Part shown: one piece after another, positions 6,348 through 63,777 of the stretch
How the letters are laid out: each line of letters begins with the position of its first letter
Numbering within the stretch: the stretch's first letter is position 1
Assembly (NCBI GenBank): GCA_023379025.1
Contig: JAMCTH010000003.1
Location: 103,362 to 167,361, forward strand
From: Patescibacteria group bacterium
Lineage (GTDB): Bacteria; Patescibacteriota; Microgenomatia; UBA10105; UBA927
DNA: 64,000 nt
Direction of reading: 5' to 3'
The notes under the pieces: generated by a model
What the model saw: the letters and a program-made list of their open reading frames with translations, nothing else
Databases searched by the model: none
What the model was told of the DNA's origin: nothing
Position numbers and translations under genes: made by a program

Positions 6348-6421
6348 GGCGCGTTCGTCTAGTGGCCCAGGACGGCTGGTTCTCAACCAGCAAATCATGG
6401 GTTCGAATCCCATACGCGCTA
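6348..6421 (+). tRNA. tRNA-Glu (anticodon CUC)
   Basis: 74 nt cloverleaf. Acceptor GGCGCGU/ACGCGCU (G1-U72), D-arm UCGUCUAGUGGCCCAGGAC (the tRNA-Glu signature), anticodon stem GCUGG/CCAGC with loop UUCUCAA giving CUC, T-arm AUGGGUUCGAAUCCCAU, discriminator A. No encoded CCA. Confidence 0.85.
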
Positions 6422-6507
6422 CAATTTATTTCACTCAGTACAGATCGTCGGTTCGTTTACTCCGAAAGCGAAGGTATTGGGAGAATCCGACTGTGGGTAC
6501 CAATTTA

Positions 6508-8801: not shown

Positions 8802-11800
8802 TTAACTGCTTTCTACAACTGCTATTTCTTCCGTCGTTAGGCCGTAGAGTTTATAAACCAATTGGTCAATTTGCTTTTCGTATTCGATAACCTGTGATTG
8901 CTTAATGGAGTTTCGTAGATAATCCCTGTCTGTGGTAATGACTAGGATTTTATTGACCATACTGACAATCTTTTCTATGTTTATTTTATTTGTATTCTTA
9001 ATTGGGAAAAGTTCAATTTTATATTTTTTCCAACGGCTTGTGCCCATACCCGAACTTGTTGATATTTGCTCAAAATACCAGAGCCCAAGTTTTGAGTTTA
9101 AAATTCCTAGTAAATACTTAAGATTGTCACCCACCATAGCAAAGAGAGTCGCTTCGGCAATAAACCCTTTGTCATCATAAGTAAATTTTGGTTTATCAGA
9201 TAACTCTCCCCAAATAATTTTTGGTTTCTCAAATTCTTCAAAATAAACACAATTTCTAAGATTAGTCCAATGTGAGCCCTTATTGTGTCTAATTTCTAAT
9301 TTATCCCTGTACTGCGCTAAATGTTTATAAATTGCAGGGTAATTTTTCGCCACATCAATTCTTGGAAGCTTGCCTTTTATTCCGTTATGGCTATTTATTA
9401 GCCAGAGGTCTTGCCATTCATAATAATATTTTCCGACATCACGACCCCTCAACATTGGCTTAATTATTTCTGCACTTTTTGGGTCTACTTTAGTCAGTTT
9501 GTTTTTTGTCTCGGTGCTAATTACGAAAGCATCATTATAACCATTTAGAATACCTATATAAATTCGCTGGTTTAGTTGCTTTAGTGGGGTAGAATCTTTT
9601 TCTAGCTTTGCTCTAAGTGAAGCTGTTTCTAAATTGCTTATTATCCATCCGTTGTCATCAAGATTATCAAGAGTCACATAGTTATTGCTGAAATAACTAC
9701 TAATATCTACGTACCGGTTCGAGGTTAAATTAAAACTAAGTGCTCTAAGTTTATTTTGGAATACACTTTTTTCGAGGACAATTACATTACTCTCTACAAT
9801 AGCTGTATCGAATACTTGAGAATTCTCGAAATCAATTAGGATTAAAGGGTTGGTGTTTTCTTTAAAGTATTTTCTCAATAACGCACCATACTTTGTTTTC
9901 ATCCATGAGTTCGAACTGATATAAGAAAGTGTCCCCATATTTTTTAAAAGATTTACCCCTTTTTCATAAAACACACAATAAACGTCCGAAGATTTCGAAT
10001 AAGTCTTAAAATCCAACTTTGATAACTCTTGACTTACTTTTTTATTCTTTTGTAACTGAAAATAGGGTGGGTTAGCTATGACTACATCAAAACCACCGTT
10101 CTTTTCAAACACTTCGCTAAAATTAAGTTTCCAAAGGAAAAATGGCTTGATGTTTGCTTTTTTGAAGCGCTCGATTTCCGGCAAGAGAGATAATTTTTTC
10201 TGCTCCTTAACAGATGCCTCAATCAAATCCCAAGTTAAGTTTTCAATTTCTCTCTTGATTTCGTCTTTCTCAGTTTTGTGCGCAGTCTTAAAGAATTGAG
10301 CTTTGAGTTCTTGTAGTTGCTTGGTAATTCTCTCTGCCTCTGAGATAAGATCAAAGAAGTGTTGTTGTTCTAATTTTGCTTCGGACTCAAAAAGCTTAAT
10401 ACCCTCGTATTCCTCGAGTAAGCTATTGCCCTGCATAATTTTATAATCAAGGTTTGGCAGGGGTTTAATTTGCTTGATATCCTGCTCATCAACAATTAAA
10501 GAAAGCCACAAACGAAGTTTGGCTATTTCCACAGCTCCGGGGTCTATATCTACCCCGTACAGGCAGTTTTGAATGGCGTGGCGCTTGAAGTCATAGATAC
10601 TGCGGCCGTTATCCGATAGGTAATTGGTGAGGATGTTGCGAACTCTAATTACTTCGGTCATCATGCCGACCAAAAAGGCACCGGACCCAACCGCAGGATC
10701 GCAAACATGGATTTTTTCTAATTTTTCATCAAGAAGGTGTGCGTTGTCGCGAATACTTTGTGGAAGTCTAAAGTGATAGTCTTTTGTTTCCCGACCTTCA
10801 TTTATAACCCGTGCTTCGTGCTCAATGGCTGTTTCCCCTAAGCGGATGAGGGTTTCGATATCATCCCGTCTAACTTTGCCGTCTAATTCTGTGAGTAGAT
10901 AGTTAATTAAACTTTCCTGACACATATAGTGGACAATCTCACGCGGGGTGTAGTAAGTGCCTTTGGATTTGCGGTCTTTAACTTCCAAAAGGTTCTCAAA
11001 AACCTTTCCCAGCATCTCCGGATCAACGGCCACCTCACGCTCAAGCGGCTCATCTTCCTTAACCGTGAAGTTGTAGCGGTCAAAAACATCTAAAATCCCG
11101 TCTCCGGTGTCGCCCTCTTTGGTTTTCCTATTATTCGAAAAAAGCTCATCGGGTAAGCGAATATCGGTGTGCACCCAGTCATAGTTTCCAAGGGGATCAA
11201 AAAGTCCTCCGTTTAAGAAGGGAATTTTGCAGTTAAATTTGCTATAAAAATCATCTGTACGCTCAACGGCTAAGGCTTCGTAAAAAAGAGGTTCCAGGGT
11301 GTCGTTGAAGAAATTATCGTAAGGAGCTATCGTTTTTTCAAAAAGCCGGCGTAAAAAGTCTTTTGGACCCGTACCCCAAACGGCATCTCTGGCAACCCCA
11401 AACCAGCCCTTTTTTTGTAAAAAGTAAAGGAAAACAATCTGACCAAGAAGCTTTTTAGCAAAGTCGGTGGTGTCGATATTTTTCTCTTGGAAGTCAGATT
11501 TTATCTTGGCGTCTTTGGCAACCATCGCGTCGAGCGCCTCTTTGGTATCCAAAAACAGCTTTTTATACTTTTCAAAGAAGTCTTTGGTAACAACCTCAAC
11601 GCTGAAAGCTGACTCAAGATCACTAAGAGCGGGTTTAAAGTCCGTGTCTTTGAGAATTGGCAGAAGTTGTCTTTGAGCGGTGTGAGTGTTTTCGTTGGCG
11701 CCAACTAAAAAAGAAAAACGGCGAGCCGGGGTAAGCTCGGTTATGGCCTTTATCTTTCCGGCTTTTGACTCTCCCAAGTGATAATCCATCTTTACTAAGG

Positions 11801-12200
11801 AGAGCCGCCAATCGTCAGAGTCTTTGGTATAAAAAGCCACAAGCGCGGCGTCTTTGGCGATACCGCCTCGACTGCCGTTTAAGTACCAAGCAATAAAGTT
11901 TCTTTGCATGGTACGCGCCCGCTCTAAAGCGCTTTGTTTATTTAAACAAACTGCTAAGACTTCAATTTTATGGCCGTCAACGTCCTCATACTTACCCAGA
12001 CGTTCAAGCGTTTTTATATGTGAGTCGTAGGCGTCGGGTATGAGATTGCCTCGATAGATAAAAGTATCGGTATCTAGGAAGTGAAAGAGGTTTTTGGCAA
12101 AGATTAAAAAACGCTCCCTATCGAAGGGATTTTCAAAAGTGCTCTTAATCAGATTTAATGCCCACGTTTCATTCATGGATGTCTTCCTCCAATAACTCAA
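8802..12200 (-). CDS. Large gamma-class N6-adenine DNA methyltransferase, Eco57I / type IIG / PglX / DrmMI-like
   Basis: 1132 aa. Motif X-like GTYYTPREIVHYM, SAM-binding motif I VCDPAVGSGAFL and catalytic motif IV DVVIANPPY. About 400 aa N-terminal region and about 400 aa C-terminal putative target-recognition region, an architecture shared by type IIG/IIL enzymes and BREX/DISARM methylases. Confidence 0.85.
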   Translation of the reverse strand: MSYWRKTSMNETWALNLIKSTFENPFDRERFLIFAKNLFHFLDTDTFIYRGNLIPDAYDSHIKTLERLGKYEDVDGHKIEVLAVCLNKQSALERARTMQRNFIAWYLNGSRGGIAKDAALVAFYTKDSDDWRLSLVKMDYHLGESKAGKIKAITELTPARRFSFLVGANENTHTAQRQLLPILKDTDFKPALSDLESAFSVEVVTKDFFEKYKKLFLDTKEALDAMVAKDAKIKSDFQEKNIDTTDFAKKLLGQIVFLYFLQKKGWFGVARDAVWGTGPKDFLRRLFEKTIAPYDNFFNDTLEPLFYEALAVERTDDFYSKFNCKIPFLNGGLFDPLGNYDWVHTDIRLPDELFSNNRKTKEGDTGDGILDVFDRYNFTVKEDEPLEREVAVDPEMLGKVFENLLEVKDRKSKGTYYTPREIVHYMCQESLINYLLTELDGKVRRDDIETLIRLGETAIEHEARVINEGRETKDYHFRLPQSIRDNAHLLDEKLEKIHVCDPAVGSGAFLVGMMTEVIRVRNILTNYLSDNGRSIYDFKRHAIQNCLYGVDIDPGAVEIAKLRLWLSLIVDEQDIKQIKPLPNLDYKIMQGNSLLEEYEGIKLFESEAKLEQQHFFDLISEAERITKQLQELKAQFFKTAHKTEKDEIKREIENLTWDLIEASVKEQKKLSLLPEIERFKKANIKPFFLWKLNFSEVFEKNGGFDVVIANPPYFQLQKNKKVSQELSKLDFKTYSKSSDVYCVFYEKGVNLLKNMGTLSYISSNSWMKTKYGALLRKYFKENTNPLILIDFENSQVFDTAIVESNVIVLEKSVFQNKLRALSFNLTSNRYVDISSYFSNNYVTLDNLDDNGWIISNLETASLRAKLEKDSTPLKQLNQRIYIGILNGYNDAFVISTETKNKLTKVDPKSAEIIKPMLRGRDVGKYYYEWQDLWLINSHNGIKGKLPRIDVAKNYPAIYKHLAQYRDKLEIRHNKGSHWTNLRNCVYFEEFEKPKIIWGELSDKPKFTYDDKGFIAEATLFAMVGDNLKYLLGILNSKLGLWYFEQISTSSGMGTSRWKKYKIELFPIKNTNKINIEKIVSMVNKILVITTDRDYLRNSIKQSQVIEYEKQIDQLVYKLYGLTTEEIAVVESS

Positions 12201-13005
12201 TGCGCGTAGCGCGCATCAACGACCTCATTTGATCGATCGCTACCTGATTAAGTGAAGCTAACCGTTTATTTTGCGGCAGCCCCTCTTTTATTAAAAGAGC
12301 ATTCAATGATTCCAAATTTGTCAGACAAACAAGTTGCGCGGCAGTTGCATAATCACGAATATTTCCCGGTTTATGTGGATTGGTATCCCGCCACTCGGTA
12401 GCGGTTATGCCGAATAAAGCTTTGTTGAGCACGTCTGCTTCGCTGGCATAGATAAAATTTATTTGCTGTTGAGAGAGTACCGGAGGGATCAAATGAGCTT
12501 TTACAGCGTCTGTGTGTATTCTGTAATTGATTGCCGCTAAATTCCGTTTCAAATCCCAACCCAATTTTTTCTGCTCGATTTCTTCTTCCTTAAGTCTCTG
12601 AAATTCTTTAATGAGATAGATTTTAAATTCGGGGCTAATCCACATGCCAAATTCAAAAGCGATGTCTTTGTGAGCGTATGTGCCGCCATATCTTCCCGCC
12701 CTTGCTTTCAACCCGATAGCATTTGTTTTTCGAACCCAATCTTTGACGCTGATTTTGTAACTGTTTAGACCAGCCTGGCTTCTAATTATGGCGAATTCGC
12801 CATAATTAAACTGAGGATTATTAATCCGCTCCCAAATGCCCAAAAAATCAACGGTGTTCCTGTTTCTGAGCCAATCTGAAATGAAAAAGTCCCCGTCTTT
12901 GGCTTTAAGCATATCAGTGAGTGAAATATAGTCGCCCTCTTTTGTTTGGAATAAGGTTATTTGTCTGCCCTTGACCGTTAATTGTTTTGAACTAGATTTT
13001 TTCAT
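12169..13005 (-). CDS. KilA-N domain protein
   Basis: About 279 aa from MKKSSSKQ. Central YGGTYAHKDIAFEFGMWISPEFKIYLIKEF matches the KilA-N/APSES-type DNA-binding signature (GTWVHP.LA..FA.WLSP.F). The start lies 13 nt after the helicase stop and the stop overlaps the methyltransferase start. Confidence 0.65.
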   Translation of the reverse strand: MKKSSSKQLTVKGRQITLFQTKEGDYISLTDMLKAKDGDFFISDWLRNRNTVDFLGIWERINNPQFNYGEFAIIRSQAGLNSYKISVKDWVRKTNAIGLKARAGRYGGTYAHKDIAFEFGMWISPEFKIYLIKEFQRLKEEEIEQKKLGWDLKRNLAAINYRIHTDAVKAHLIPPVLSQQQINFIYASEADVLNKALFGITATEWRDTNPHKPGNIRDYATAAQLVCLTNLESLNALLIKEGLPQNKRLASLNQVAIDQMRSLMRATRIELLEEDIHE

Positions 13006-16000
13006 ATAAATATTCGGATAAAATGACTTCTCTTGGTCCGGCAACTTGTGCCGAACTTTCAGCCAATGTTTCTTTGAAAAACTCGCTTGGAATACCAAGT
13101 TTCAAAAGCGACAGCAATTTAAGCGGATTTTTATCTTTCTTGTATAGCTCGTCAAGATTTTTGATTAGTCTTTTGGTTGTGGACTTAGGCAAGGCGCCTT
13201 CTTCCAGACGAGCCATAACATTACGAAGGTAGAGCTCATCTTCTTCGGTATAGCCCTTGAAGTCTTTGACTTCCCGGGCCTTGAGAATGTTAAGAAGCTG
13301 GGCGCTGGTGTCACGGCCTCGTTTACCCTTAACTTCTTGGGCTTCTTCGGTTGTGGCCAAAACAAACGCCTGTTTATTTTTCGAAAGCAGTTTATAAAAA
13401 TCTTCTCCTACCGGTTCCCGTCCGGCTTCTTTGGCAACTTCCAGTTTTTGCGCGGCTGAAATAAAGTCAAGCTCCATCGAATCACCACTGGCAACAGCGA
13501 AGAATTTTTGCAGTTTGCCTTTTCTGAAATAAGTAAGTAAAGAATTGGTTTTATCGTCATCCTTATCAATTCTTGCGGTGCGGGCTTTTTTAGGCAGTCT
13601 TTTGATTTTTTCAAATAAGTCCGGGTTAGTATCCCTAATATCGCGAATGATTGAGAGGTATTTAAGATCGCTTTCTTCTTCCTCGTCCTCACCGGTAATA
13701 ACTTCTTTGGAAGTTAAGCGAATCCAAAGGTCGTGCGACTTAATTTCCTCGCCTTCGGTGAGAAGCCTGGCGTCTGCCCCAAGAAGTTCTATAAAAGCTT
13801 CGATTTTAGCTTCGGCCGCCTCTTTGAGTTTAATTTGGTCGTTTGACTGTTTAGTAGGGAAGAAATTAAACGTATATATTTTGTCAAAGGGAGTATCAAC
13901 GCGGTTAATGCGGCCTGTTCTTTGCATTAAACGGGTAGGATTCCAGGGAATGTCATAATTGATAACCACGTTGGACTGGTGAAGGTTGACGCCTTCTGAA
14001 AGTACCTCGGTGGTGACTAGAATCCGGTAATCGTCTTTGGGGAATCGGGCTCCCGCGTCAAAGTTCTCAATCACTTTCTCGCGCACGCTGGCTCCGGAGC
14101 TTCCATGAAACGAGAGCACTTGTTCGGGGAATTTAGTACTTAGGTTTTTCTCAAGGTATTGGGCGGTTTCTTTAGATTCGGTAAAAATAATAAGTTTACT
14201 CTCACCCAAAATTTTACGAGATAAGAGGATGTCTATAAATTTGGCCAGTTTAGGGTCCCCACTGACACGGCGCCAAAGCTTGGTGATATCTCTTAAAATG
14301 GCCAGGTCGTTTTCGAGATCAACTTTGAAAGAGTCTTCAAAGTCTTCTGATTTATAACGCTGGGCCATATCTTCATCTACCAGCCTTTGTATCGCGGCTT
14401 CGTCGTCCTGCTCCAAAAGCTCGAAGATTTTATTGATATGCTTTTTACTGACATAAACATTGCCTTTTTCAAACTCATCTAAAAACCGCTCGTATGAAGC
14501 GATAAACCTATCAAGCGTATTTCTGAACGCAAAGAAGCTACTTTCCAAGCGTTTAACCAAAAGGATTTTCATAAACTTACCCATGTTCTTCTGACCTTGT
14601 TTGTCTGCTTGAGATACGTCGCCTTTGTAGTAGGTAAGGGGCATGTAACGGGCGTATTTGAATTTTTGTGTTATAGACTCGATAGTTGTGGTAAAAATCG
14701 CATCTTCTTCTTTATCGAGCTGGTATAAAATCGGCTCCGGATCTGCGACATCGGGAAATTTGAGGTTTTGCTTTTCCAGGTCTTTACTAAAATAATTGAT
14801 AATTTCACTGCGGGTACGCCTAACCATCAGATATTTAAGGACTTTTTCTCTTATTTCCTTGGCATTATCACGAACGGTGTCGAGATACTCGGCGCGGTTT
14901 CGCTGACGGTCCAAGCCCTTAAGTCTTTTTTCCAGACTTGAGAAGAAGATTTCCAAGTTGGGAAGGTTAGGAATGGTACTTTTCTTGGGTTTTTGAAATA
15001 GCTTGATTTGGCTCAAGATATCTTTCGGCGAATTGTTATAAGGGGTAGCCGTAACTAAAATTACCCTTTTACCACGAGTAATCTGCGCTAGCTTCTCATA
15101 AGTAATGTTATCCTCGGTTCTGAAGCGGTGAGCCTCATCTACAAACACATTGCTGTATTTATCCGTGCCTCTTTCAATTAACTTTTCCAGCTTTCCCAGA
15201 GATTCAAAGTCGGCGGAGACTTTAAAGTCGGAAAAAACATTCGGCCAAGAGCCCGGATTGTTCTCATCCAAAAGAACCGGCGGCGCTATGACCAAGTTTC
15301 TGCCGTCGAGCTGGTTGGCCAGCATAGCGGCAATATAGGTTTTACCCAAACCCACAACGTCGGAGATGAAAACACCGCCGTATTCATCTAGGATTTTTTT
15401 AGCGTTGAGAACTGCTTGCTCCTGATATTCAAGTTTTTTGAATTTAACGGGGGTGTACTTGTAAAAAACGTCTCCGGTTTGACTGATCTGATCTTTGAAA
15501 TACTCATAAAGGAATTTGAGGTAAAGCTCATAGGGGGTGATGGTGTTATTCAGCCAAGTTTTGTTATTGACCGTTTCGATGTATTTTTCGGAGACATCAA
15601 CGGCGTCTTTCCAAAGCTGGTTAAACTTATCTTGGGCAAATCGGTAATCGGACGCAGTTTTAAGCTCAACATTAAATTCAAGATTATCAACCAAGCCTTT
15701 TTGCGAGAAATTGCTTGAGCCGGTGATAACACGGCCAATGTCTCGGTCTCCTTCTTTGAAAGTGATGATATAGAGCTTGGCATGGATGTTGGCGGTAGGA
15801 TAGGCCCTTATTTCCAGCTTTCCGCTTTTTATCCATTCGATAAACCTAGTTACACCCTGTTCTATGCTCTCGGCGTCCTCGGATTCTTCCAGCTCGGAGG
15901 CAATGAGAGTTGAAAATTCCTCTTTGGCTTCGGCATGCGAGAAGGTGAGCGATAGTTGTTCTTCTGCGGCCTTGATATTCTCAAGCGTTTCGCGTCCGGT

Positions 16001-16189
16001 GCCGATTCCTATTAAAATGCGGATTTTCTCGGTTTTCTCAAGAACCGGATAGAGCTTGTAAAACCCGCTGGTATAAAAATAGCCGACTAAACTATCGAAA
16101 AAACGAGCGTCTTTAATTAAAACCCTGAAGCGGTTTAAAAGGCTTATTTCTTTTTCGTTTGTTATAAACGTTAGGTCTGAAACTTGCAT
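12992..16189 (-). CDS. PLD-family nuclease domain fused to SNF2-family (SF2) helicase
   Basis: 1065 aa. N-terminal HxK PLD motif HAKLYIITF...GSSNFS. Then Walker A GLGKTYIAA, DEAH box VFVDEAHRFR, motif III VTATPYNNS and motif VI QRTGRINR. About 300 aa helical C-terminal tail of unknown function. Confidence 0.85.
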   Translation of the reverse strand: MQVSDLTFITNEKEISLLNRFRVLIKDARFFDSLVGYFYTSGFYKLYPVLEKTEKIRILIGIGTGRETLENIKAAEEQLSLTFSHAEAKEEFSTLIASELEESEDAESIEQGVTRFIEWIKSGKLEIRAYPTANIHAKLYIITFKEGDRDIGRVITGSSNFSQKGLVDNLEFNVELKTASDYRFAQDKFNQLWKDAVDVSEKYIETVNNKTWLNNTITPYELYLKFLYEYFKDQISQTGDVFYKYTPVKFKKLEYQEQAVLNAKKILDEYGGVFISDVVGLGKTYIAAMLANQLDGRNLVIAPPVLLDENNPGSWPNVFSDFKVSADFESLGKLEKLIERGTDKYSNVFVDEAHRFRTEDNITYEKLAQITRGKRVILVTATPYNNSPKDILSQIKLFQKPKKSTIPNLPNLEIFFSSLEKRLKGLDRQRNRAEYLDTVRDNAKEIREKVLKYLMVRRTRSEIINYFSKDLEKQNLKFPDVADPEPILYQLDKEEDAIFTTTIESITQKFKYARYMPLTYYKGDVSQADKQGQKNMGKFMKILLVKRLESSFFAFRNTLDRFIASYERFLDEFEKGNVYVSKKHINKIFELLEQDDEAAIQRLVDEDMAQRYKSEDFEDSFKVDLENDLAILRDITKLWRRVSGDPKLAKFIDILLSRKILGESKLIIFTESKETAQYLEKNLSTKFPEQVLSFHGSSGASVREKVIENFDAGARFPKDDYRILVTTEVLSEGVNLHQSNVVINYDIPWNPTRLMQRTGRINRVDTPFDKIYTFNFFPTKQSNDQIKLKEAAEAKIEAFIELLGADARLLTEGEEIKSHDLWIRLTSKEVITGEDEEEESDLKYLSIIRDIRDTNPDLFEKIKRLPKKARTARIDKDDDKTNSLLTYFRKGKLQKFFAVASGDSMELDFISAAQKLEVAKEAGREPVGEDFYKLLSKNKQAFVLATTEEAQEVKGKRGRDTSAQLLNILKAREVKDFKGYTEEDELYLRNVMARLEEGALPKSTTKRLIKNLDELYKKDKNPLKLLSLLKLGIPSEFFKETLAESSAQVAGPREVILSEYLYEKI

Positions 16190-16237
16190 GAGCTGATTAT
16201 ACGTCTAAAACCCGATGAGGTCGAGAGGGTTTAGAGG

Positions 16238-16771
16238 CTATTTACTCCAAATACCACGCTTCTTTTTCTGTGCTTCTTCTTGAGCTTTCAGTAATTCATC
16301 CTGATACTTCAGCTTTCTCCGATCCTGATAGATAGTAACTTTCACTAAGCCTTGTTTCGCAAGCTCCACCACTACATTTTTCCCTTCGATAAACGGATAG
16401 GCAAGCACCCTGCCGAACCGGTCTGACGTGTAGGCGTCATATTCAAACGTGACGGTTTTTCCCTGAACGAGTTTGATCATCGCTTTCGTTGCATCTTCCT
16501 CGAACGGTTGCCCGGAATCCGGAGCATTCACCCCGACAAATCGGACGATCTGACCATTTGCTAACTCTATAGTGTCGCCATCTATAACTCGTTTGACCGT
16601 TTCCTTTGCTGGAAGGTTCCGGATAGTGGTTGTTGAGACATTGGGTTGTTCGAGTATTGTTTTTACCTGTTGTTCATACTTTGTCCCACCAAGAAAGGAT
16701 AACAGAGCAACGAGGAGTGTTGCCGGCACTAAGACCAGTTTGTTGGTGTTGTACTTCGATTTTGCATTCAT
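16238..16771 (-). CDS. Thermonuclease (staphylococcal nuclease / SNase-like), membrane-anchored or secreted
   Basis: 177 aa. N-terminal TM helix, VIDGDTIEL...RFVGVNAPD catalytic motifs of the SNase fold, and a Lys-rich tail. Confidence 0.85.
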   Translation of the reverse strand: MNAKSKYNTNKLVLVPATLLVALLSFLGGTKYEQQVKTILEQPNVSTTTIRNLPAKETVKRVIDGDTIELANGQIVRFVGVNAPDSGQPFEEDATKAMIKLVQGKTVTFEYDAYTSDRFGRVLAYPFIEGKNVVVELAKQGLVKVTIYQDRRKLKYQDELLKAQEEAQKKKRGIWSK

Positions 16772-32916: not shown

Positions 32917-33857
32917 ATATTTCCGACCGTTTTCCTACCCGCACTGATGTATCGATACATCAGTGCAGAAGTTACGTAAACCTGCGCATGTTGAGTCAAA
33001 TATCGTTTGTAGCCTTTTTTTTCAATGTCCCGCGAAAGTTCCACTCCTCCGGTATCGACAATTTTTCCTGATACCAGGACGTGAACGGTGTCCGGCTTCA
33101 GATACTTGAGAATCCGCATATAGTGGGTGACAACGATAACTCCTGTCCCTGTCTGGACGAGCCTCCTGACGCCGTTTGCAACTATTTTTAGCGCGTCTAC
33201 ATCGAGTCCCGTGTCAATCTCGTCAAACACGGCGTATTTGGGTCTGAGTACCAGAGCCTGCAGCATTTCCGCTTTTTTCTTTTCTCCTCCGGAAAACCCG
33301 TCATGTATCCCCCGCGACAGGAAAGATTCATCGAGTTTCAGAAATCCGGCTTCTTCTTTCACCTTCGACAAAAAAGCCGGCAGAGACAGGCCGTCTGCCC
33401 GCCATTTACCCGCAAGAAGAGGATTGTGGGGAGTGTTCATAACGCGCTTTCCCGATTCCCCGTAGAGCGACTGATATGCACTTCGGAGAAGATTGATGAT
33501 GGTGACACCCGGCACGGCGACCGGGGATTGCAGCGCGAGAAACAGACCCGCTTTCGCCCGCTCCTCCGGTGACAAATTAATAACCTCAATTCCGTTAACA
33601 ACTATCGATCCGGGATTATTACTTGATTCTTTTGACTTTTTGAATTTTGGATTTGTTTGGGATTTGGTCATTGGGATTTGGGATTTATAGGACGGGTGCC
33701 CCATGAGCGCATATGCAAGTGTTGATTTCCCACTGCCGTTTGGCCCCATAATTGCATGTATTTCGCCCGGCTTTACCGTCATGGAGACACCTTTCAGGAT
33801 TTCTTTGCCTTCGATCCCTGCATGGAGAGTGCGGATAGCGAGTTCCTGCTGTTTCAT
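32913..33857 (-). CDS. sufC: Fe-S cluster assembly ATPase SufC, with a Lys/Ser-rich low-complexity insertion and a C-terminal extension
   Basis: 314 aa. Walker [13 protein letters not shown] signature LSGGEKKK, Walker [11 protein letters not shown]. Insertion [22 protein letters not shown] after the Walker A region. Extends about 33 aa past the usual EKKGY end. Confidence 0.9.
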
Positions 33858-34261
33858 ACTGTCCTGACGAGATGTTCAAGGGTGATCGTCCCGAGACTTC
33901 CGGCGACGGCGCCGTTGACCGTGCGCCGTATATGCTGAGGCAGACACGCCGTATAAAGCGGACACGCGGATGAAGACGCGGCCTGCTCCGGTTTTTTTCG
34001 AAGATCCGTATCAAGAGCCTGCATGATGTCCCAGACGGATATCCTGTCCGCCGGTTTGGCAAGTTCATACCCGCCGCCGATTCCCTCGCGGCTTACGACC
34101 AGGCCCGCTGCTTTAAGCCTGCTTGCAATTTTTTTCAGGAAAAGCACGGAAACGCCATGTTCGCGTGCGACGGAAGAAAGAGGAAGCGGTTTTTCCCCGG
34201 TTCTCCGGCAGAGTTCGCCCATGAAAAGCAGTCCGACATGTTCCTGTCTGGGAATTTTCAT
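33854..34261 (-). CDS. Rrf2-family transcriptional regulator (IscR/SufR-like)
   Basis: About 135 aa from MKIPRQ. wHTH LSSVAREHGVSVLFLKKIASRLKAAGLVVSREGIGGGYELAKP typical of Rrf2. C-terminal Cys residues. Confidence 0.75.
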   Translation of the reverse strand: MKIPRQEHVGLLFMGELCRRTGEKPLPLSSVAREHGVSVLFLKKIASRLKAAGLVVSREGIGGGYELAKPADRISVWDIMQALDTDLRKKPEQAASSSACPLYTACLPQHIRRTVNGAVAGSLGTITLEHLVRTV

Positions 34262-34319
34262 AACTGATACCAATCTAGTATCAGTTTACGGTATTTCCAT
34301 AAAGTGTCAAGGGGTGAGG

Positions 34320-35102
34320 TCAAAGACGGTTGCTGACCCGGTCGTTTTTCCCGAAAAATACTTCACGTGTCCCCTGCATCCTGAGGATAAAAAATTCCTG
34401 CTTTTTTTTCATCGCTCCAGTCATCCGCGTAAAACGGTCGACATCTTCCTCCTGCGATACATGGCAGGAAAGCGCCCTCAGTTTTGTCTTTTCAAACTTA
34501 GTTATATCGATGACAGCAGTAATGAGCTTGTCCGCTGTACCAACCCAGGGTTTGTCAAAAACCTTCTCCGGCAGGATCTTTTTATCCTGCATGTACCGGA
34601 CGAGGCTTGCCGGCTGGCATACGTAGTAAAGTTTCGGTTCCTGGTCCGCCCGAAGCGGCTGTCCGGACGCGCGTTCCCGGTCTTCGGCGTATTTCTGGAA
34701 TGCAAAGGTCGTTGAAAGGGAAATTTTCCTGTGGTCGGGATGGTTCGAAATACCGCCCGGTTCAAACGTGACGACGATATCCGGAGCATATTCCGCCAAA
34801 ATCCGGTATACCGCGTCCTCAAGATCTCCCGGAGTAAGGGAAGACAGTTTGCCGTCCTGATAGTCGAGAAACGTCACGAACGTAATGCCCAGAAGCTCAG
34901 CCGCCGCTTCCAGCTCCTTCTGCCGTATAGATCCGAGCACCACCTTGTCCGTGTTTTTGTAGGGGCCGGTAAGCCCTGCTTCTCCTTTGGTTGCCGTTAC
35001 GAGATTTACTTCCCAACCCGCGGCATGGTATTTGGCAAGCGTGGCACCGCAGCTGAACGTTTCATCATCAGGGTGGGCAAAGACGGCGAGTAGCTTTTTC
35101 AT
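34320..35102 (-). CDS. PIG-L/LmbE-family N-acetylglucosaminyl deacetylase (BshB/MshB-like)
   Basis: About 260 aa from MKKLLAVFAHPDDETF. AHPDDE zinc-binding motif and HPDH second motif. Confidence 0.8.
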   Translation of the reverse strand: MKKLLAVFAHPDDETFSCGATLAKYHAAGWEVNLVTATKGEAGLTGPYKNTDKVVLGSIRQKELEAAAELLGITFVTFLDYQDGKLSSLTPGDLEDAVYRILAEYAPDIVVTFEPGGISNHPDHRKISLSTTFAFQKYAEDRERASGQPLRADQEPKLYYVCQPASLVRYMQDKKILPEKVFDKPWVGTADKLITAVIDITKFEKTKLRALSCHVSQEEDVDRFTRMTGAMKKKQEFFILRMQGTREVFFGKNDRVSNRL

Positions 35103-35183
35103 AGATAGTATGTATGGTAGCTCACCAAGTTGAAAAAAGAAATATCGATGTGCTGTAATGGTAGTGAAGGGAGGTGAACTTAT

Positions 35184-35378
35184 ATGACCAAACTCTTCAA
35201 ACGCGCGGTAACATACATGGGGAAAAATGTGGCATTCAACAGCCTCACGCATCTCATCGGCGGCATCGGTATCGGCATGCTACTTACCTATCCGCTGGCC
35301 GGCGCGCATCCTGTCCGTTGGGGGCTCGTATTCATTGCGGTTGCGCTTGCCGGGCACTGGTGGGCAGCCACACACTAA
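35184..35378 (+). CDS. Small membrane protein
   Basis: 64 aa with strong upstream SD (GGGAGGTG). Two hydrophobic segments. Confidence 0.35.
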   Translation: MTKLFKRAVTYMGKNVAFNSLTHLIGGIGIGMLLTYPLAGAHPVRWGLVFIAVALAGHWWAATH

Positions 35379-35383
35379 TCGGT

Positions 35384-35584
35384 TCAGCCCGCTGATTCCA
35401 GGGCCTGAATTTCCTTTTTAAGGTCGGCAACCATGGCGCGCAGCACCATGACTTCCTGATGCTTCATCTCCGAAGCTGCACTTTCGTGGATGACGCCGCG
35501 GTAGCGCTTCATCCTGAATGCAAGTTTATCCTCATAAAAGGCCAGTCTCTCCTTAAGCTTTTGAAGTTTCTCGAAATCAACCAT
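35384..35584 (-). CDS. Small coiled-coil protein
   Basis: 66 aa, heptad-like Lys/Glu/Leu pattern and a G-rich SD upstream. Confidence 0.3.
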   Translation of the reverse strand: MVDFEKLQKLKERLAFYEDKLAFRMKRYRGVIHESAASEMKHQEVMVLRAMVADLKKEIQALESAG

Positions 35585-35692
35585 AATGTTCCCCCCGGGG
35601 TCTTCGTTAGCTGTTTATATACGATAGAAAGCGAAGCTTTCAAAGAGCAACGCTTAGCTTTCTCAGTTTCTCACCAAAAAAGTAACGCCTAA

Positions 35693-35825
35693 AAGCTATC
35701 TCCAAGCCTATTCTTCGAGCCTCTCGGCGAGAAGTCTCGAGGTAAACTTCGCGAAAAGTTCTCACGGAGTTTACCCTGAGTCTTCCCGAAGGGTTCGAAC
35801 AATATCTTTTCGAGATTTGAGATAA
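35693..35825. repeat. Copy A of an approximately 130 nt intergenic element (candidate ncRNA or MITE)
   Basis: CTCCAAGCCTATTCTTCGAGCCTCTCGGCGAGAAGTCTCGAGGTAAACTTCGCGAAAAGTTCTCACGGAGTTTACCCTGAGTCTTCCCGAAGGGTTCGAACAATATCTTTTCGAGATTTGAGA is nearly identical to 50063..50195. Flanked by imperfect 26 nt direct repeats (CAAAGAGCAACGCTTAGCTTTCTCAG and CAAAGAGCAAAGCTTACTTTCTCATC). Confidence 0.7.
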
Positions 35826-35989
35826 CCTCTCGTTTTCTCGTCAAAGAGCAAAGCTTACTTTCTCATCCCCTACCTATTATATAAGGTTGGTGAGAAAAAA
35901 ATAATCCGGTAGCAGAGCCGGTCCCGGAAGTTATTTTGCATAACCCCGAACGTAATCGTCTCGCCGGAGTCCTGATGTATAATACTCCC

Positions 35990-37252
35990 ATGAAACGAAT
36001 TGCCATGCTTTCTTTCCATACCTGTCCCCTGGCTTCCCAGGAAGGCAAAGAAACCGGCGGCATGAACGTCTATGTCTACGAACTTTCCAAAGAACTCGTA
36101 AAGATTGGATATGCCATAGATGCCTTCACCCGCTGTCAGGAGGAACGGTGTGAAGAAGTCGTAGAAGTGACCCCCGGATTCCGCGTCATACACATCAATG
36201 CCGGCCCCCAGGCGTCCTATCCCAAAAAAGAACTCATGGCACTCCTGCCGGAATTTGTCCGGAATATGGAGGCGTTTCTCTCCCGCGAACAGCTCGAGTA
36301 TGACCTCTTCCATGCACATTATTACCTCTCGGGGCTCGCGGGCATGAGCCTCAGAGAACGTATCCACGCTCCGGCAATACCCATGGCGCTCACCTATCAT
36401 ACCCTCGCGCTTATGAAAAACCTGGTCGCACGGGATGTGATGGAACAGGAAACCCCGGACCGGATCGAAGCGGAAATCCGTCTCTCACAAACGGCCGACG
36501 CCATCCTCGTGCCGAGCAAAAACGACCGGGCGTATCTCGAGTACCTGTACGGATGTCCGACAGATAAACTTGCAATCGTAACCCCCGGCGTCAATACCGC
36601 ACTTTTCCACCCCATACCCAAACCGGAAGCCAAACAGCACATCCATGCAGATCTTGCGCATAAAATAGTGCTTTTCGTCGGACGCATCGAACCGTTAAAA
36701 GGCATAGATACATTGCTTTATGCCATGAAAATCATTAGGGCCAGGCACCGGGATAAAGAGGTGTGCCTTTTTATTGTCGGCGGCGACGTACGCCAGTCCC
36801 CCGATCTCTGGACCGGAGAGCTTAAAAAACTGGAACGCCTGAGGCGGTCGCTTGATCTCGAAACGGTTGTCCGTTTCGTCGGTCAAAAACCCCAGGAGGA
36901 GCTTCCCTACTACTACAATGCCGCGGATGTGGTGACTATGCCGTCCCATTACGAATCGTTCGGCATGTCCGCTCTCGAGGCTATGGCCTGCGGAATTCCG
37001 GTGCTTACCACCAATGTCGCCGGCATTACAAACCTCTGGGAAAAATGGGAGGAAACGCTCGTCGCTTCAGCCAACAATCCCCTTCTTCTCGCCGGTCAGA
37101 TGGAAACCCTCCTGTTTGATGAAAATAAACACCGGGAAATGAGTGAAAAAGTGCTGGAAAAAACCAGAAAGCTCACCTGGCACCATACGGCTCTCCAGGC
37201 CCAGGCAGTATACGAAAAACTGATTCATCCCGAACCTGGCCATGCGGCATAG
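35990..37252 (+). CDS. GT4-family glycosyltransferase, MshA/BshA-like
   Basis: About 420 aa from MKRIAMLSFHTCPLASQEGKETGGMNVYVYELSKEL, the MshA/BshA N-terminal signature. C-terminal GT-B E-x7-E region (ESFGMSALEAMACGIPV). Confidence 0.85.
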   Translation: MKRIAMLSFHTCPLASQEGKETGGMNVYVYELSKELVKIGYAIDAFTRCQEERCEEVVEVTPGFRVIHINAGPQASYPKKELMALLPEFVRNMEAFLSREQLEYDLFHAHYYLSGLAGMSLRERIHAPAIPMALTYHTLALMKNLVARDVMEQETPDRIEAEIRLSQTADAILVPSKNDRAYLEYLYGCPTDKLAIVTPGVNTALFHPIPKPEAKQHIHADLAHKIVLFVGRIEPLKGIDTLLYAMKIIRARHRDKEVCLFIVGGDVRQSPDLWTGELKKLERLRRSLDLETVVRFVGQKPQEELPYYYNAADVVTMPSHYESFGMSALEAMACGIPVLTTNVAGITNLWEKWEETLVASANNPLLLAGQMETLLFDENKHREMSEKVLEKTRKLTWHHTALQAQAVYEKLIHPEPGHAA

Positions 37253-49565: not shown

Positions 49566-50003
49566 CTAATCCCTCAGGAATTTACTGCGCATTTCAAAGG
49601 AAAAAATCGTCGGGATATAAAACGTAATATCCGCGGCAAACTTCCCGACCACCAGCCCGAGAGAGAGATTATGAAGAAGTTTGGGGAATAGGTACATCGT
49701 AAACGGGCGTATGATAAAGCCGTCCAGATACTCCGACGGACCGAACTCAACCACCAGGTTCCGGATTGCCTTAACATACGGAACAGGACTCTTTATAGTA
49801 TGTCTCCCTTTCTGAAAATGCACCTCCCGGATCAACATGGTTCCGTAATAGAAGATATTTTCGCCCCAGGTCGCGCCGTATGCCGTGGCAACGGCATTAT
49901 GAAACAAAGCATTGGTAAGTATCCCACCGCCGAGAGCGCCGATGATGGCAAATATCTCTGACGGTACATACCGTTTCACCCAGACGATAGCCCGCTTTCT
50001 CAT
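49566..50003 (-). CDS. Hypothetical membrane protein
   Basis: 145 aa, 3-4 hydrophobic segments. No family recognised. Confidence 0.4.
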   Translation of the reverse strand: MRKRAIVWVKRYVPSEIFAIIGALGGGILTNALFHNAVATAYGATWGENIFYYGTMLIREVHFQKGRHTIKSPVPYVKAIRNLVVEFGPSEYLDGFIIRPFTMYLFPKLLHNLSLGLVVGKFAADITFYIPTIFSFEMRSKFLRD

Positions 50004-50062
50004 AGATAAAGTATACCAAAAACAGGATATCCGTACGGAGAGAACTCAGGTTCGGCTTCTCG

Positions 50063-50195
50063 AAGCCATCTCCAAACCTATTCTTCGAGCCTCTCGGCGA
50101 GAAGTCTCGAGGTAAACTTCGCGAGAAGTTCTCACGGAGTTTACCCTGAGTCTTCCCGAAGGGTTCGAACAATATCTTTTCGAGATTTGAGACAA
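50063..50195. repeat. Copy B of the approximately 130 nt intergenic element
   Basis: Matches 35693..35825 with only 2-4 substitutions over about 125 nt. Lies between two minus-strand genes. Confidence 0.7.
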
Positions 50196-50198
50196 CTT

Positions 50199-51269
50199 CT
50201 ATACTTCCGGTGGGGAGATATCTTTAGGGGACGGAAGGCTGCCGTACACCCGCTGATACGTCGTCGCGACCACGGTTTCGATAAATTCCTCGTATGTCCA
50301 GCCCAGGGCGTAGACCGACGCGAGTGTCGCATCCTGCCCGTCATAGAAATTGAGGCTGGGGTTCATATTGACGTCGACAATATAGGGGCGATCTTTGAGA
50401 TCTACCCGCACATCCATCCGCGCAATATCCCGGCATCCGAATGCTTTATATGCCTTTATGGACTCGCGCTCGATCATACGGTGGAGTTTCGGGGAAAGCC
50501 TGACCGGCGCATGGACGCGGGCATCCCAGTATTCCCACGAGTGTTTATCCCACTTGGCCTCATAGGTATAGACGGCCCAGTTGTTCTCAAAATCACCGCC
50601 GAAGCTGATCTCGCAGTATGGAAATGCGCTTATTGTCCTGCCGTTTCCGATGAGCGTTACATGGATTTCGCGGCCTTCTATATATTCTTCCGCGATGACT
50701 TCTCCGGGATAACCGGCAAAGACATCCCGCACCTGATCCTCAAGTTCACCTTTATCGATGACTACAGAATCCTGGGAAATACCGATCCCTGCGTGCTGAT
50801 GCGAGGGTTTGACGATCACCGGATAGTCCAATCCGCGTACATGCGAAACGTCCGAACGGCGGTTAAAAATCCGGAAGGGCGGCGTGCTGATCCCGAGTTT
50901 TTTCATCCGCCGCTTGATCCATGCCTTTTTCGTCGCGTAAAGAAAACACTTCATGTCATGCCCGACCTGAGCCCGGCCCAGGGTTTCGAGTTTCTGCCCG
51001 ACTTTGACATAAAGCTCCCATGTCTCATCCTCTACCAGATTGAATACCACGTCGCCGGGAGTCCGGACGGCTTTTTTCCAGTTTTTTTTCGTAACGCGGA
51101 CCTTCCGTACCGCATGACCGGTTTTTCGGAGCGCTTTTTCTATGCCTTTGGCGCACTCCATGGTGTCATCGTCATCTTCATGCGTGCCGACATAAACGAG
51201 AATAACAACGGACACCGGGCGTTCGGGGATACAAGGGATAAGTGATTTGTTTCTTGTGTGTTTCCTCAC
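50199..51269 (-). CDS. ATP-grasp enzyme, D-alanine--D-alanine ligase-like
   Basis: 356 aa. YPVIVKPSHQHAGIGIS, EEYIEGREIHV and a Ddl-like C-terminal region. Confidence 0.78.
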   Translation of the reverse strand: MRKHTRNKSLIPCIPERPVSVVILVYVGTHEDDDDTMECAKGIEKALRKTGHAVRKVRVTKKNWKKAVRTPGDVVFNLVEDETWELYVKVGQKLETLGRAQVGHDMKCFLYATKKAWIKRRMKKLGISTPPFRIFNRRSDVSHVRGLDYPVIVKPSHQHAGIGISQDSVVIDKGELEDQVRDVFAGYPGEVIAEEYIEGREIHVTLIGNGRTISAFPYCEISFGGDFENNWAVYTYEAKWDKHSWEYWDARVHAPVRLSPKLHRMIERESIKAYKAFGCRDIARMDVRVDLKDRPYIVDVNMNPSLNFYDGQDATLASVYALGWTYEEFIETVVATTYQRVYGSLPSPKDISPPEV

Positions 51270-61992: not shown

Positions 61993-62835
61993 CTAATCTA
62001 CAATTTTTATTATATCCTCAATCTTCCAAATCCTATCGGTTACTCCCGCCGCCATTGCCGGTGTTTTTCCGAACGAACGTTTCAGGTTCAAAGACTTATG
62101 CGCTCGGCAGAAGTTGTAGTACATGAAATGGAGCGCTACGGCGGCTTCTAGGTTCTGTATTTTCTTTGAGAATGCGTTTGTCAGACGGGTGAAACGCCGC
62201 ATACCCATTCTCATCGTGAGATTTTGCCGCTCTACATAACTTGTGGATACTTTCGTCATATCGGGCTTTCCTTGTATGACATGCTTTTCTGAAGCGATAC
62301 ATTCTGACGGGCTGTATCGTGTATCACCTTCTTGTTGCGGCCCGTACAATTTTACCAACGTGCCATAGTCTACTTCAGAACCAAACGCTTCTTCTATGGC
62401 CCAGAGATATGGTCTATGACCATCCGTAGTAATCTGTACCCGATTAGCAAGCCGACTCTTGAGGTCTTGCATAAACTCGTTTGCGCAAACGGCGTCTCGT
62501 CGTCCGATAAGCCAGCTTGGTACGAGTTTCGTATCAGCATCGAGCGCCGTCCATGTCCATACGTCCCCATATCCGAACTCGCCTTTATGTGCTTCCGGTA
62601 CATTTTTGTCTTTGGCATAGCAGAATGACCAGATTTCATCACACTGTATGTGTTTGCATGGGAGGTTACGAAACACTTTGTCCTGATATTCGGCACATGC
62701 TTGGCCAACAGAGGCAAGAAGACGGGTTACAGTCCCTTTCGCTATCCCCGTCATACGGCACGTGGCACGGATTGAGTTACCTTCTACAAGGCATGTAATT
62801 ACTCTTGTTTTCTCCTCAAGGTTTAATGCGTTCAT
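61993..62835 (-). CDS. IS1-family transposase (fused InsA-InsB type)
   Basis: 280 aa. N-terminal HTH VITCLVEGNSIRATCRMTGIAKGTVTRLL (InsA-like), IQCDEIWSF (InsB DE..WS motif), ITTDGHRPY, and C-terminal ERQNLTMRMGMRRFTRLTNAFSKKIQNLEAAVALHFMYYNF resembling IS1 InsB [24 protein letters not shown]...HY. Confidence 0.85.
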   Translation of the reverse strand: MNALNLEEKTRVITCLVEGNSIRATCRMTGIAKGTVTRLLASVGQACAEYQDKVFRNLPCKHIQCDEIWSFCYAKDKNVPEAHKGEFGYGDVWTWTALDADTKLVPSWLIGRRDAVCANEFMQDLKSRLANRVQITTDGHRPYLWAIEEAFGSEVDYGTLVKLYGPQQEGDTRYSPSECIASEKHVIQGKPDMTKVSTSYVERQNLTMRMGMRRFTRLTNAFSKKIQNLEAAVALHFMYYNFCRAHKSLNLKRSFGKTPAMAAGVTDRIWKIEDIIKIVD

Positions 62836-62903
62836 ATGGTCTTATTATACTTGACCGCTCAAGCATTGTCGGGGGGTATTTTCTAATGTGGTACAATGCG
62901 GGT

Positions 62904-63194
62904 ATGGTCGATATTAAAAAACCCACAGACGTTGCGAATGATATTGCTAAAGCGCAAAAAGTCTATGAAAGCTTAGGAGAAGAGTTTGTTAAGGCTAATA
63001 ATGGTAAGTTCATTTCTGTTGAACCAACCTCTGGAGAACATTTTGTAGGTAATACAAGAGAAGAAGCTGTTAAACTCGCAAACGCTAAATATAAGGGAAA
63101 AGTAGTTTTTACTCGAAGAATAGGAACATTAGAAAAAGTTGCCCTTCATTCTTCCCTAACTTTGGGCGGAAACGTATATGCTAGCTTATTTTGA
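62904..63194 (+). CDS. DUF5678-like small protein (cargo)
   Basis: About 96 aa from MVDIKK. NGKFISVEPTSGEHFVGNTREEAVKLA...GKVVFTRRIG resembles the small partner proteins found beside clan AA aspartic protease genes. Confidence 0.45.
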   Translation: MVDIKKPTDVANDIAKAQKVYESLGEEFVKANNGKFISVEPTSGEHFVGNTREEAVKLANAKYKGKVVFTRRIGTLEKVALHSSLTLGGNVYASLF

Positions 63195-63588
63195 CGCCCA
63201 AGATGGAAGTGCAAAGGTAGTCATAAAAATTAGAGCCTCTAAACGAAAGCCAAAGGAAATAATCGCCTTATTAGATACAGGTCATAATGGTAGTTTATCT
63301 TTACCTCTTTGGGATTTAATTGAAATTGGGGCAAAGCTAAAAAGCTTTGAGCCAGTAGGCTTAGCTGATGGAAGAGAAGTAATAATGTACTTCTTTGAAG
63401 TAAAAGTCGAAATGGATGGCGTTGAAAAAGTAGTGTTAGCCAGTATGATAGAAAATCCTAAAATTAAGGAGGCTATTGTCGGGTTAGAATTACTTTCGCC
63501 ATATATTGCCTTTATAGATTTCAAAAATAAGAAGATTGATATTACTACGGAAGCACAACTTAAGAAGGATTTAGTCGCTAAAAAATAA
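63178..63588 (+). CDS. Retropepsin-like (clan AA) aspartic protease (cargo)
   Basis: 136 aa. ALLDTGHNGSLSLP contains the D-T/S-G catalytic motif in the expected N-terminal position of single-domain retropepsin-like proteases. The start overlaps the upstream gene. Confidence 0.6.
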   Translation: MLAYFDAQDGSAKVVIKIRASKRKPKEIIALLDTGHNGSLSLPLWDLIEIGAKLKSFEPVGLADGREVIMYFFEVKVEMDGVEKVVLASMIENPKIKEAIVGLELLSPYIAFIDFKNKKIDITTEAQLKKDLVAKK

Positions 63589-63777
63589 TTATTTACCCCA
63601 ACGCTTTATAGCAGCTTTTTTTGCTATTTCTATTCTTCTTTTTTCAGTTAATTTTGCCGCCCGTGCTTTACCACCAACCAAACCGCCAAGCCTTCCAAGA
63701 GCAACAGCCGCAGGATTTTTCTCATGTGTTGCCTCTCGCACAATTTTTCCAGCGAGTTTGTTTATATCCATGACCAT
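63589..63777 (-). CDS. Small basic Ala/Lys-rich protein, possible DNA-binding (cargo)
   Basis: 62 aa. ALGRLGGLVGGKARAAKLTEKRRIEIAKKAAIKRWGK is a basic helical tail. Confidence 0.35.
   Translation of the reverse strand: MVMDINKLAGKIVREATHEKNPAAVALGRLGGLVGGKARAAKLTEKRRIEIAKKAAIKRWGK

Follow-up and report, generated by a model that had tools for sequence, protein, structure and literature searches.

MITEs are typically AT-rich. Correia elements (Correia/NEMIS, the MITEs of Neisseria, ~100-155 bp) carry defined 26-bp terminal inverted repeats (TIRs) and a TA target duplication and number in the hundreds; direct repeats or target-site duplications (TSDs), together with TIRs, can be recognised in QMITE2 of Coxiella burnetii and in RUP/SPRITE of Streptococcus pneumoniae, some of these families also having parent IS elements; REP/BIME repeats (RAYT) and the IS200/IS605-derived PATEs are handled as single-stranded DNA, and G.T pairs are tolerated. 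Prokaryotic MITEs and ERIC-like repeats measure 50-800 bp, carry TIRs, give rise to stable stem-loop transcripts and lie in intergenic regions or 3'-UTRs (PMC10969869; PMC11602168). ERIC, an imperfect palindrome of ~127 bp that is classed as a MITE, is usually transcribed, can have a low or variable copy number and alters mRNA fate when located at gene 3' ends; Correia/NEMIS transcripts form long hairpins which are cleaved by RNase III, and QMITE2 and RUP/SPRITE show a preference for 3' UTRs and intergenic regions and give very stable stem-loop transcripts (PMC10969869). A survey of MITEs over ~1,700 prokaryotic genera does not mention Patescibacteria (PMC11602168), a search of full-text papers for MITEs in Patescibacteria yielded just two incidental mentions, and small palindromic repeats are little described in Patescibacteria/CPR.

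We analyzed a stretch of 64 kb from a Patescibacteria genome (the window), for which the original prediction had described an element of ~130 nt present twice with more than 96% identity. Pairwise comparison bore this out, giving two copies of 139 nt (copies A and B, Table 1) in the same orientation and ~96% identical; a repeat search of the window recovered the pair at 35693-35830 and 50063-50200 (138 nt, 96% identity), and this was the only family of long repeats that it found. When compared position by position, the copies differ at 35692, 35697, 35706, 35755, 35823 and 35827, six transitions out of six changes, and in an alignment with 100-nt flanks the similarity collapses abruptly outside 35692-35830, the flanks being unrelated, as had been noted before. 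The match between copies A and B is not due to chance, given its length and a blastn E value of 2e-64, the rest of the window giving noise. Moreover, when both copies were used to build a covariance model and the window and a further 1.7 kb of flanking DNA were searched with it unfiltered, two loci only were detected; both scored best on the - strand (Table 1), the + strand giving 56 and 51 bits, and the next best hit had 12 bits. The copies are separated by 14.4 kb filled with ordinary genes; the element runs from AAGCYATCTCC to GAGAYAACYTCT and has a GC content of 46% versus 50% for the genome, thus it is not AT-rich relative to the genome.

Table 1. Positions of the two copies, of the repeats around copy A and of neighbouring genes in the window.
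Feature	Position	Strand	Details
tRNA-Glu(CTC)	6348-6422		only RNA gene detected in the window
Defence-type cluster	8802-16771	-	members: 1132-aa MmeI/Eco57I-like type IIG/IIL restriction-modification fusion; 1065-aa PLD-nuclease + SNF2/ResIII helicase protein; staphylococcal-nuclease homologue
66-aa ORF	35384-35584	-	gene call in Logan assemblies; no Pfam match
Left 26-nt imperfect direct repeat	35640-35665	+	TCAAAGAGCAACGCTTAGCTTTCTCA; 26 nt from the left end of copy A
11-nt inverted repeat, left arm	35667-35677	.	TTTCTCACCAA; perfect
Copy A	35692-35830	-	hairpin -58.6 kcal/mol on -, z -4.55; covariance model 170 bits
Apical stem-loop, copy A	35741-35775	.	GGTAAACT (35741-35748) pairs with AGTTTACC (35768-35775)
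Right direct repeat	35841-35865	+	TCAAAGAGCAAAGCTTA-CTTTCTCA; 10 nt from the right end of copy A
11-nt inverted repeat, right arm	35887-35897		TTGGTGAGAAA; perfect partner of the left arm
GT4 glycosyltransferase gene	35990-37252	+	
145-aa membrane ORF	49566-50003	-	no Pfam match
Copy B	50062-50200	-	hairpin -64.5 kcal/mol on -, z -5.72; covariance model 173 bits
Apical stem-loop, copy B equivalent	50111-50145		
ATP-grasp / D-Ala-D-Ala-ligase-like (Ddl-like) gene	50199-51215	-	stop touches the 5' end of copy B (- strand)
IS1-like transposase, 280 aa	61993-62835	-	PF03400 DDE_Tnp_IS1 (25 bits), HTH_28, IS240-type DDE

The whole element is one long imperfect palindrome, which folds as a single hairpin of ~53 bp on either strand. 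Folding energies on the + strand were -55.1 kcal/mol for copy A and -60.8 kcal/mol for copy B, and those on the - strand (Table 1) were lower by 3.5-5 kcal/mol in both copies; shuffled sequences had means of -34 to -41 kcal/mol, yielding z-scores between -4.5 and -7.1, and none of 200 shuffles equalled the element. Aligning the left arm with the reverse complement of the right arm gave 46-47 matches over 58-60 positions (~79%) and placed an asymmetric internal loop near the base of the hairpin, while the terminal 11-12 nt are inverted repeats with 8 of 11 positions identical and transitions at the other three. The self-complementary CGAG/CTCG blocks that had drawn attention to the sequence are real and constitute the two sides of this one imperfect stem. 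The T-loop-like GGTTCGAAC is also present, but it pairs with TTCGAGCC as part of the long stem, and since neither ARAGORN nor the Rfam tRNA model detected a tRNA-like gene at the element, a tRNA-like reading was discarded. At the top of the hairpin, the 19 nt enclosed by GGTAAACT and AGTTTACC in copy A hold one of the differences between the copies (35755).

In these features the element resembles ERIC, which has a similar size (127 vs 139 nt) and is likewise an imperfect palindrome over the whole unit, intergenic and with no cognate transposase known (PMC10969869). However, the two share no sequence similarity, as none of 5,426 E. coli genomes (28 Gb), each of them carrying ERIC, gave a match in blastn (word size 11), and ERIC identity was discarded on this ground; the phylum is also unrelated, and here only two copies are observed. 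The element is small, non-coding and dispersed, as are Correia/NEMIS, but differs from the Correia elements in having no TSD, in pairing over its full length and in the low copy number seen.

The element is open in three reading frames, but the earlier statement that no ORF with sensible coding potential spans it held: a concatenated peptide query from the six frames found no homologue among 5.8 billion proteins, the ORFs had no Pfam match, and in the open - strand frame the substitutions between copies A and B are mostly non-synonymous. A hidden protein-coding gene was rejected on the basis of the peptide search and of these substitutions. A functional RNA had also been proposed, with Rfam as the check, and at the gathering threshold the scan of the whole window gave nothing at the element, its sole match being the tRNA-Glu at 6348; a permissive scan of the locus (E<=10) gave only hairpin noise from miRNA precursors, with 13-26 bits against gathering thresholds of 80-95, and a known RNA family was rejected accordingly.

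The flanking gene coordinates confirmed that both copies are intergenic. Copy A lies in a divergent intergenic region of 405 nt, with the starts of the 66-aa ORF and of the GT4 gene on either side, and the start of the 66-aa ORF is 108 nt downstream of the copy on the - strand. Copy B takes up most of a 195-nt spacer that extends from the stop of the ATP-grasp/Ddl-like gene to the start of the 145-aa membrane ORF, the latter 59 nt downstream on the - strand; with its last 2 nt the shared sequence reaches into the TAG stop (50199-50201) of the ATP-grasp/Ddl-like gene, and with an overlap of only 2 nt with one stop codon the pair is not a duplicated gene 3' end. In abutting a stop codon copy B is similar to QMITE2 and RUP/SPRITE in 3' untranslated regions, but none of the direct repeats, TSDs or parent IS elements of those families was found. 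Both copies thus share the same orientation relative to a downstream gene on the - strand.

This arrangement would suit a structured cis-acting RNA or small RNA on the - strand that controls the expression or processing of the 66-aa and 145-aa genes, a hairpin in a 5' UTR or intercistronic spacer which was duplicated because both genes are co-regulated; we consider this explanation unlikely. Speaking for it, besides the common orientation upstream of the two start codons, is the better fold of the - strand, which contains 8-9 G.U pairs against 4-5 in the + strand fold. In addition, the differences between copies in the terminal stem (35697, 35823 and 35827) and at the boundary (35692) all keep pairing on the - strand, where A-U pairs become G.U, or G.U pairs become A-U or G-C, while the terminal stem of the + strand has three A.C mismatches in each copy; and a perfect TATAAT (35881-35876, - strand) is located 46 nt upstream of copy A, with no good -35 partner. 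The asymmetry in pairing favours a single-stranded form of the - strand, either RNA or ssDNA, and copy A was assigned to the - strand in Table 1 because that strand pairs better, the repeat being near-symmetric as DNA. Nevertheless, the excess of G.U pairs (9 against 4) lacks statistical significance, and two copies out of two would share their orientation by chance in 50% of cases. The set for covariation consists of two copies at 96% identity, too alike to show real covariation. Paralogous regulatory RNAs within a single genome usually show identities well below 96%; furthermore, no functional link is evident between the 66-aa and 145-aa genes, Rfam gave no match past generic hairpin noise, and a consensus scan revealed no promoter or terminator at or bracketing the element. 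We regard as very unlikely the stronger version of the RNA reading, according to which the element represents a so far undescribed class of cis-regulatory RNA, a long hairpin, from Candidate Phyla Radiation bacteria, acts from the - strand upstream of small membrane/coiled-coil genes after RNase III processing or factor binding, and owes the near-identity of its copies to strong selection or gene conversion instead of recent transposition.

A second perfect TATAAT is found on the + strand of the same intergenic region (35978-35983) and ends 6 nt before the ATG of the GT4 gene (35990); given this distance and the lack of a Shine-Dalgarno sequence, the GT4 mRNA may be leaderless.

Copy A had also been described as bracketed by imperfect direct repeats of 26 nt. 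These repeats are real (score 40 versus a shuffled maximum of 23, with 0 of 300 shuffles reaching 40), but they do not abut the element; because they are spaced 26 and 10 nt away from its ends and are missing at copy B, where no comparable counterpart was found, they do not represent a conventional target-site duplication, and no TSD abuts the ends of either copy A or copy B. Copy A is also flanked by a perfect inverted repeat of 11 nt of borderline significance (4 of 300 shuffles reach its score). These repeats specific to copy A, in the divergent PIG-L/66-aa versus GT4 promoter region, may be operators of that region, or else remnants of a longer form of the element or of a long target duplication.

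The palindrome might also act at the DNA level as a protein-binding or recombination site, such as a lineage-specific regulator's operator, a site bound by a nucleoid protein, or the target of a site-specific or single-strand recombinase (cf. attC, REP/RAYT). The long imperfect palindrome with conserved bulges and the position of copy A in a divergent promoter region with its 26-nt direct and 11-nt inverted repeats agree with such a role, and a one-strand folding that tolerates G.T pairs is what single-strand recombinases recognise. REP/BIME and PATEs are, like the element, hairpin-forming intergenic repeats without TSDs, and their single-strand handling would fit its strand-asymmetric pairing; in contrast, REPs are 20-40 nt long, GC-rich and begin with 5' GTAG, while the element has 139 nt and 46% GC and contains neither GTAG nor CTAC. 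Integron attC sites (Vibrio VCRs, ~123-126 nt) resemble it in length, in their imperfect palindrome, in following directly after a stop codon and in the high identity of copies within one genome, but the element has no R''(RYYYAAC) or R'(GTTRRRY) cores on either strand and comes with no cassette array and no integrase. REP identity was therefore rejected (no GTAG, and no Y1 (RAYT) transposase in the window), as was attC identity (no core motifs, and ordinary genes across the 14.4 kb between the copies). For a DNA site in general, the missing attC and REP motifs and the absence of integrase, Y1 or RAYT transposase genes from the window weigh against the idea, as do the 139 nt, which far exceed typical operators, and the location of copy B directly after a stop codon between co-directional genes, which is no promoter context; overall, this explanation appears quite improbable.

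The Logan Pfam tables and a scan of the remaining ORFs revealed no Y1/RAYT, IS200/IS605 or integrase genes in the window, and the sole transposase, an IS1-like gene (Table 1), is present in both Logan samples (see below). Its flanks showed no clear terminal inverted repeats, and the gene was discarded as the parent IS, as neither its ends nor its surroundings resemble the element; a 13-nt match at 63112-63124 was also set aside, lying inside an unrelated ORF. Next to the IS1-like gene there are small ORFs (129, 136 and 62 aa; 63178-63777 and 62805-63194) with no Pfam match and lower GC, possibly cargo of a mobile island.

When compared with the usual definition of a MITE, the element has the size and non-coding nature (139 nt, within 50-800 bp, with no transposase gene) and terminal inverted repeats of at least 10-15 bp, though imperfect, whereas a TSD of 2-10 bp is absent and no cognate transposase with matching ends occurs in the window. 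The conservation of the direct repeats of MITEs wanes with time (PMC10969869), but copies A and B are young.

The copy number could be further approached through metagenome assemblies. The window DNA is found at 100% identity in the Logan assemblies of two runs, SRR10278331 and SRR10252151, and all Logan contigs approaching the element stop inside it; the element hence fragments short-read assemblies of this organism, and it could serve as a strain marker. Contig breaks were predicted from a k = 31 graph containing copies A and B only, in which 35707 and 50077 mark the start of the repeated 31-mers. On the right-hand side the observed break, 50163, agrees exactly with the prediction; the left-hand contigs, predicted to end at 35736 and 50106, end in both samples at 35727 and 50091, that is, 9 and 15 nt earlier than two copies would produce. 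It follows from these early breaks that one more predecessor exists in the graph both for the A-type 31-mer starting at 35698 (G at 35706) and for the B-type 31-mer starting at 50062, and this assembly behaviour implies at least two further junctions with A-type and B-type element in the same populations. The copies seen directly are two, the extra ones being deduced from the contig break points.

These data bear on whether the pair could be a one-off segmental duplication or gene-conversion patch with neither mobility nor function, or else an artefact of MAG assembly. The two directly seen copies, the lack of a TSD and the lack of a transposase in the window would be accounted for by such an event; however, an artefact is ruled out for the joins between flank and repeat, four of the junctions having been reproduced at 100% identity in the two independent Logan assemblies, the contig break points imply extra copies, and a random event is unlikely to match a complete, self-contained hairpin exactly. 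We thus hold a one-off origin to be highly improbable. A separate break, at 36006 in contig SRR10278331_5348, falls among the opening codons of the GT4 gene, 175 nt rightward of copy A, and is not explained by a two-copy repeat; it suggests that a second sequence in the sample shares the next 31-mer, for instance a variant from another strain, a paralogue or a different arrangement upstream.

Beyond these samples, a DNA-pattern search with a 20-base split pattern across the apical stem gave one match in 185,579 species genomes (Enterococcus) and six in JGI metagenomes, all of which were dismissed as chance, having nothing in common beyond the pattern itself. Three scans of viral contigs with patterns yielded nothing related, and blastn against phage and plasmid collections gave noise only. 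This absence of relatives fits a young, lineage-specific repeat, the family having n = 2.

The flanking genes do have relatives, the named closest homologues belonging to Amesbacteria, Gottesmanbacteria, Levybacteria and Microgenomates. The closest non-self homologue of the GT4 protein shows 57% protein identity, and those of the ATP-grasp protein 73%, 71% and 69%; the relatives examined showed no synteny at the sites of copies A and B. In the two closest ones (L138 and JGI 3300075153) the next gene is convergent and overlaps the ATP-grasp stop by 4 nt; since they have no such spacer, the 195-nt spacer with copy B is not ancestral to the 3' end of the ATP-grasp gene. The C-terminal tails of ATP-grasp/Ddl-like proteins are highly variable, some ending in ...RVYGS and others continuing for ~20 more residues (LPDRIRERQLLL...), and with tails this variable in the family their comparison revealed no clear truncation by the element. 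The covariance model, run on 39 kb of the relatives' DNA, found nothing credible; a hit in L138 (5002-5075, 18 bits) was rejected, being a short hairpin of generic type in which 69 core positions are deleted.

Taken as a whole, the near-identity of the copies, their abrupt ends and their unrelated flanks point to recent copying rather than to an anciently conserved regulator. Between the two options of the original prediction, a functional RNA or a recently active MITE, the second fits the anatomy better, as the copies are near-identical and sharp-ended, form a full-length palindrome, are non-coding and seem to have further copies, even though the TSD and the cognate transposase are missing. 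The size of the element, its stable stem-loop and its intergenic placement, in one case right at the 3' end of a gene, likewise agree with what has been published on MITEs (PMC10969869; PMC11602168). On balance, and with moderate confidence, we interpret the element as a lineage-specific, non-autonomous, palindromic dispersed repeat of the MITE/ERIC-like kind. Most likely it is a small DNA that is, or once was, selfish, residing in an uncultured Patescibacteria (Microgenomates-group) genome, and it has probably been copied recently into at least two intergenic sites, and likely four or more; it is not a proven MITE, there being neither a TSD nor a cognate transposase in the sequence available.

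Such a repeat could have spread by transposition in trans, or by copying based on recombination or repair, with the enzyme presumably encoded outside the window; a single-strand route (IS200/IS605- or REP-like) or a recombination route would fit both the missing TSD and the strand-asymmetric pairing. Judging by gene directions, both copies are probably transcribed on the - strand, as the genes on either side of copy B both run on that strand and copy A precedes a gene that does so as well; copy B must be so transcribed if the ATP-grasp and 145-aa genes are co-transcribed. The RNA of the element would form a long double-stranded hairpin of ~50 bp, which by analogy could act in mRNA stability, RNase III-type processing or termination, effects that have been described for Correia, ERIC and QMITE2 (PMC10969869). 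If co-transcribed, the element would add 50 bp of double-stranded RNA to two mRNAs and may affect their stability; any such effect would be a by-product and not the reason why the element exists. A repeat family that persists in tiny, compact genomes and fills their spacers is modestly informative on mobile DNA and genome plasticity in reduced, episymbiotic bacteria; it is an ordinary type of feature in an under-studied lineage and leaves current understanding unchanged.

Regarding the wider neighbourhood of copy A, the region 33854-37252, beside a SUF Fe-S operon (25.4-33.9 kb), comprises an Rrf2 regulator, a PIG-L family deacetylase and the divergent GT4 gene, whose JGI name is D-inositol-3-phosphate glycosyltransferase (MshA/BshA-like); PIG-L and GT4 look like a biosynthesis pair for a low-molecular-weight thiol of the mycothiol/bacillithiol type.
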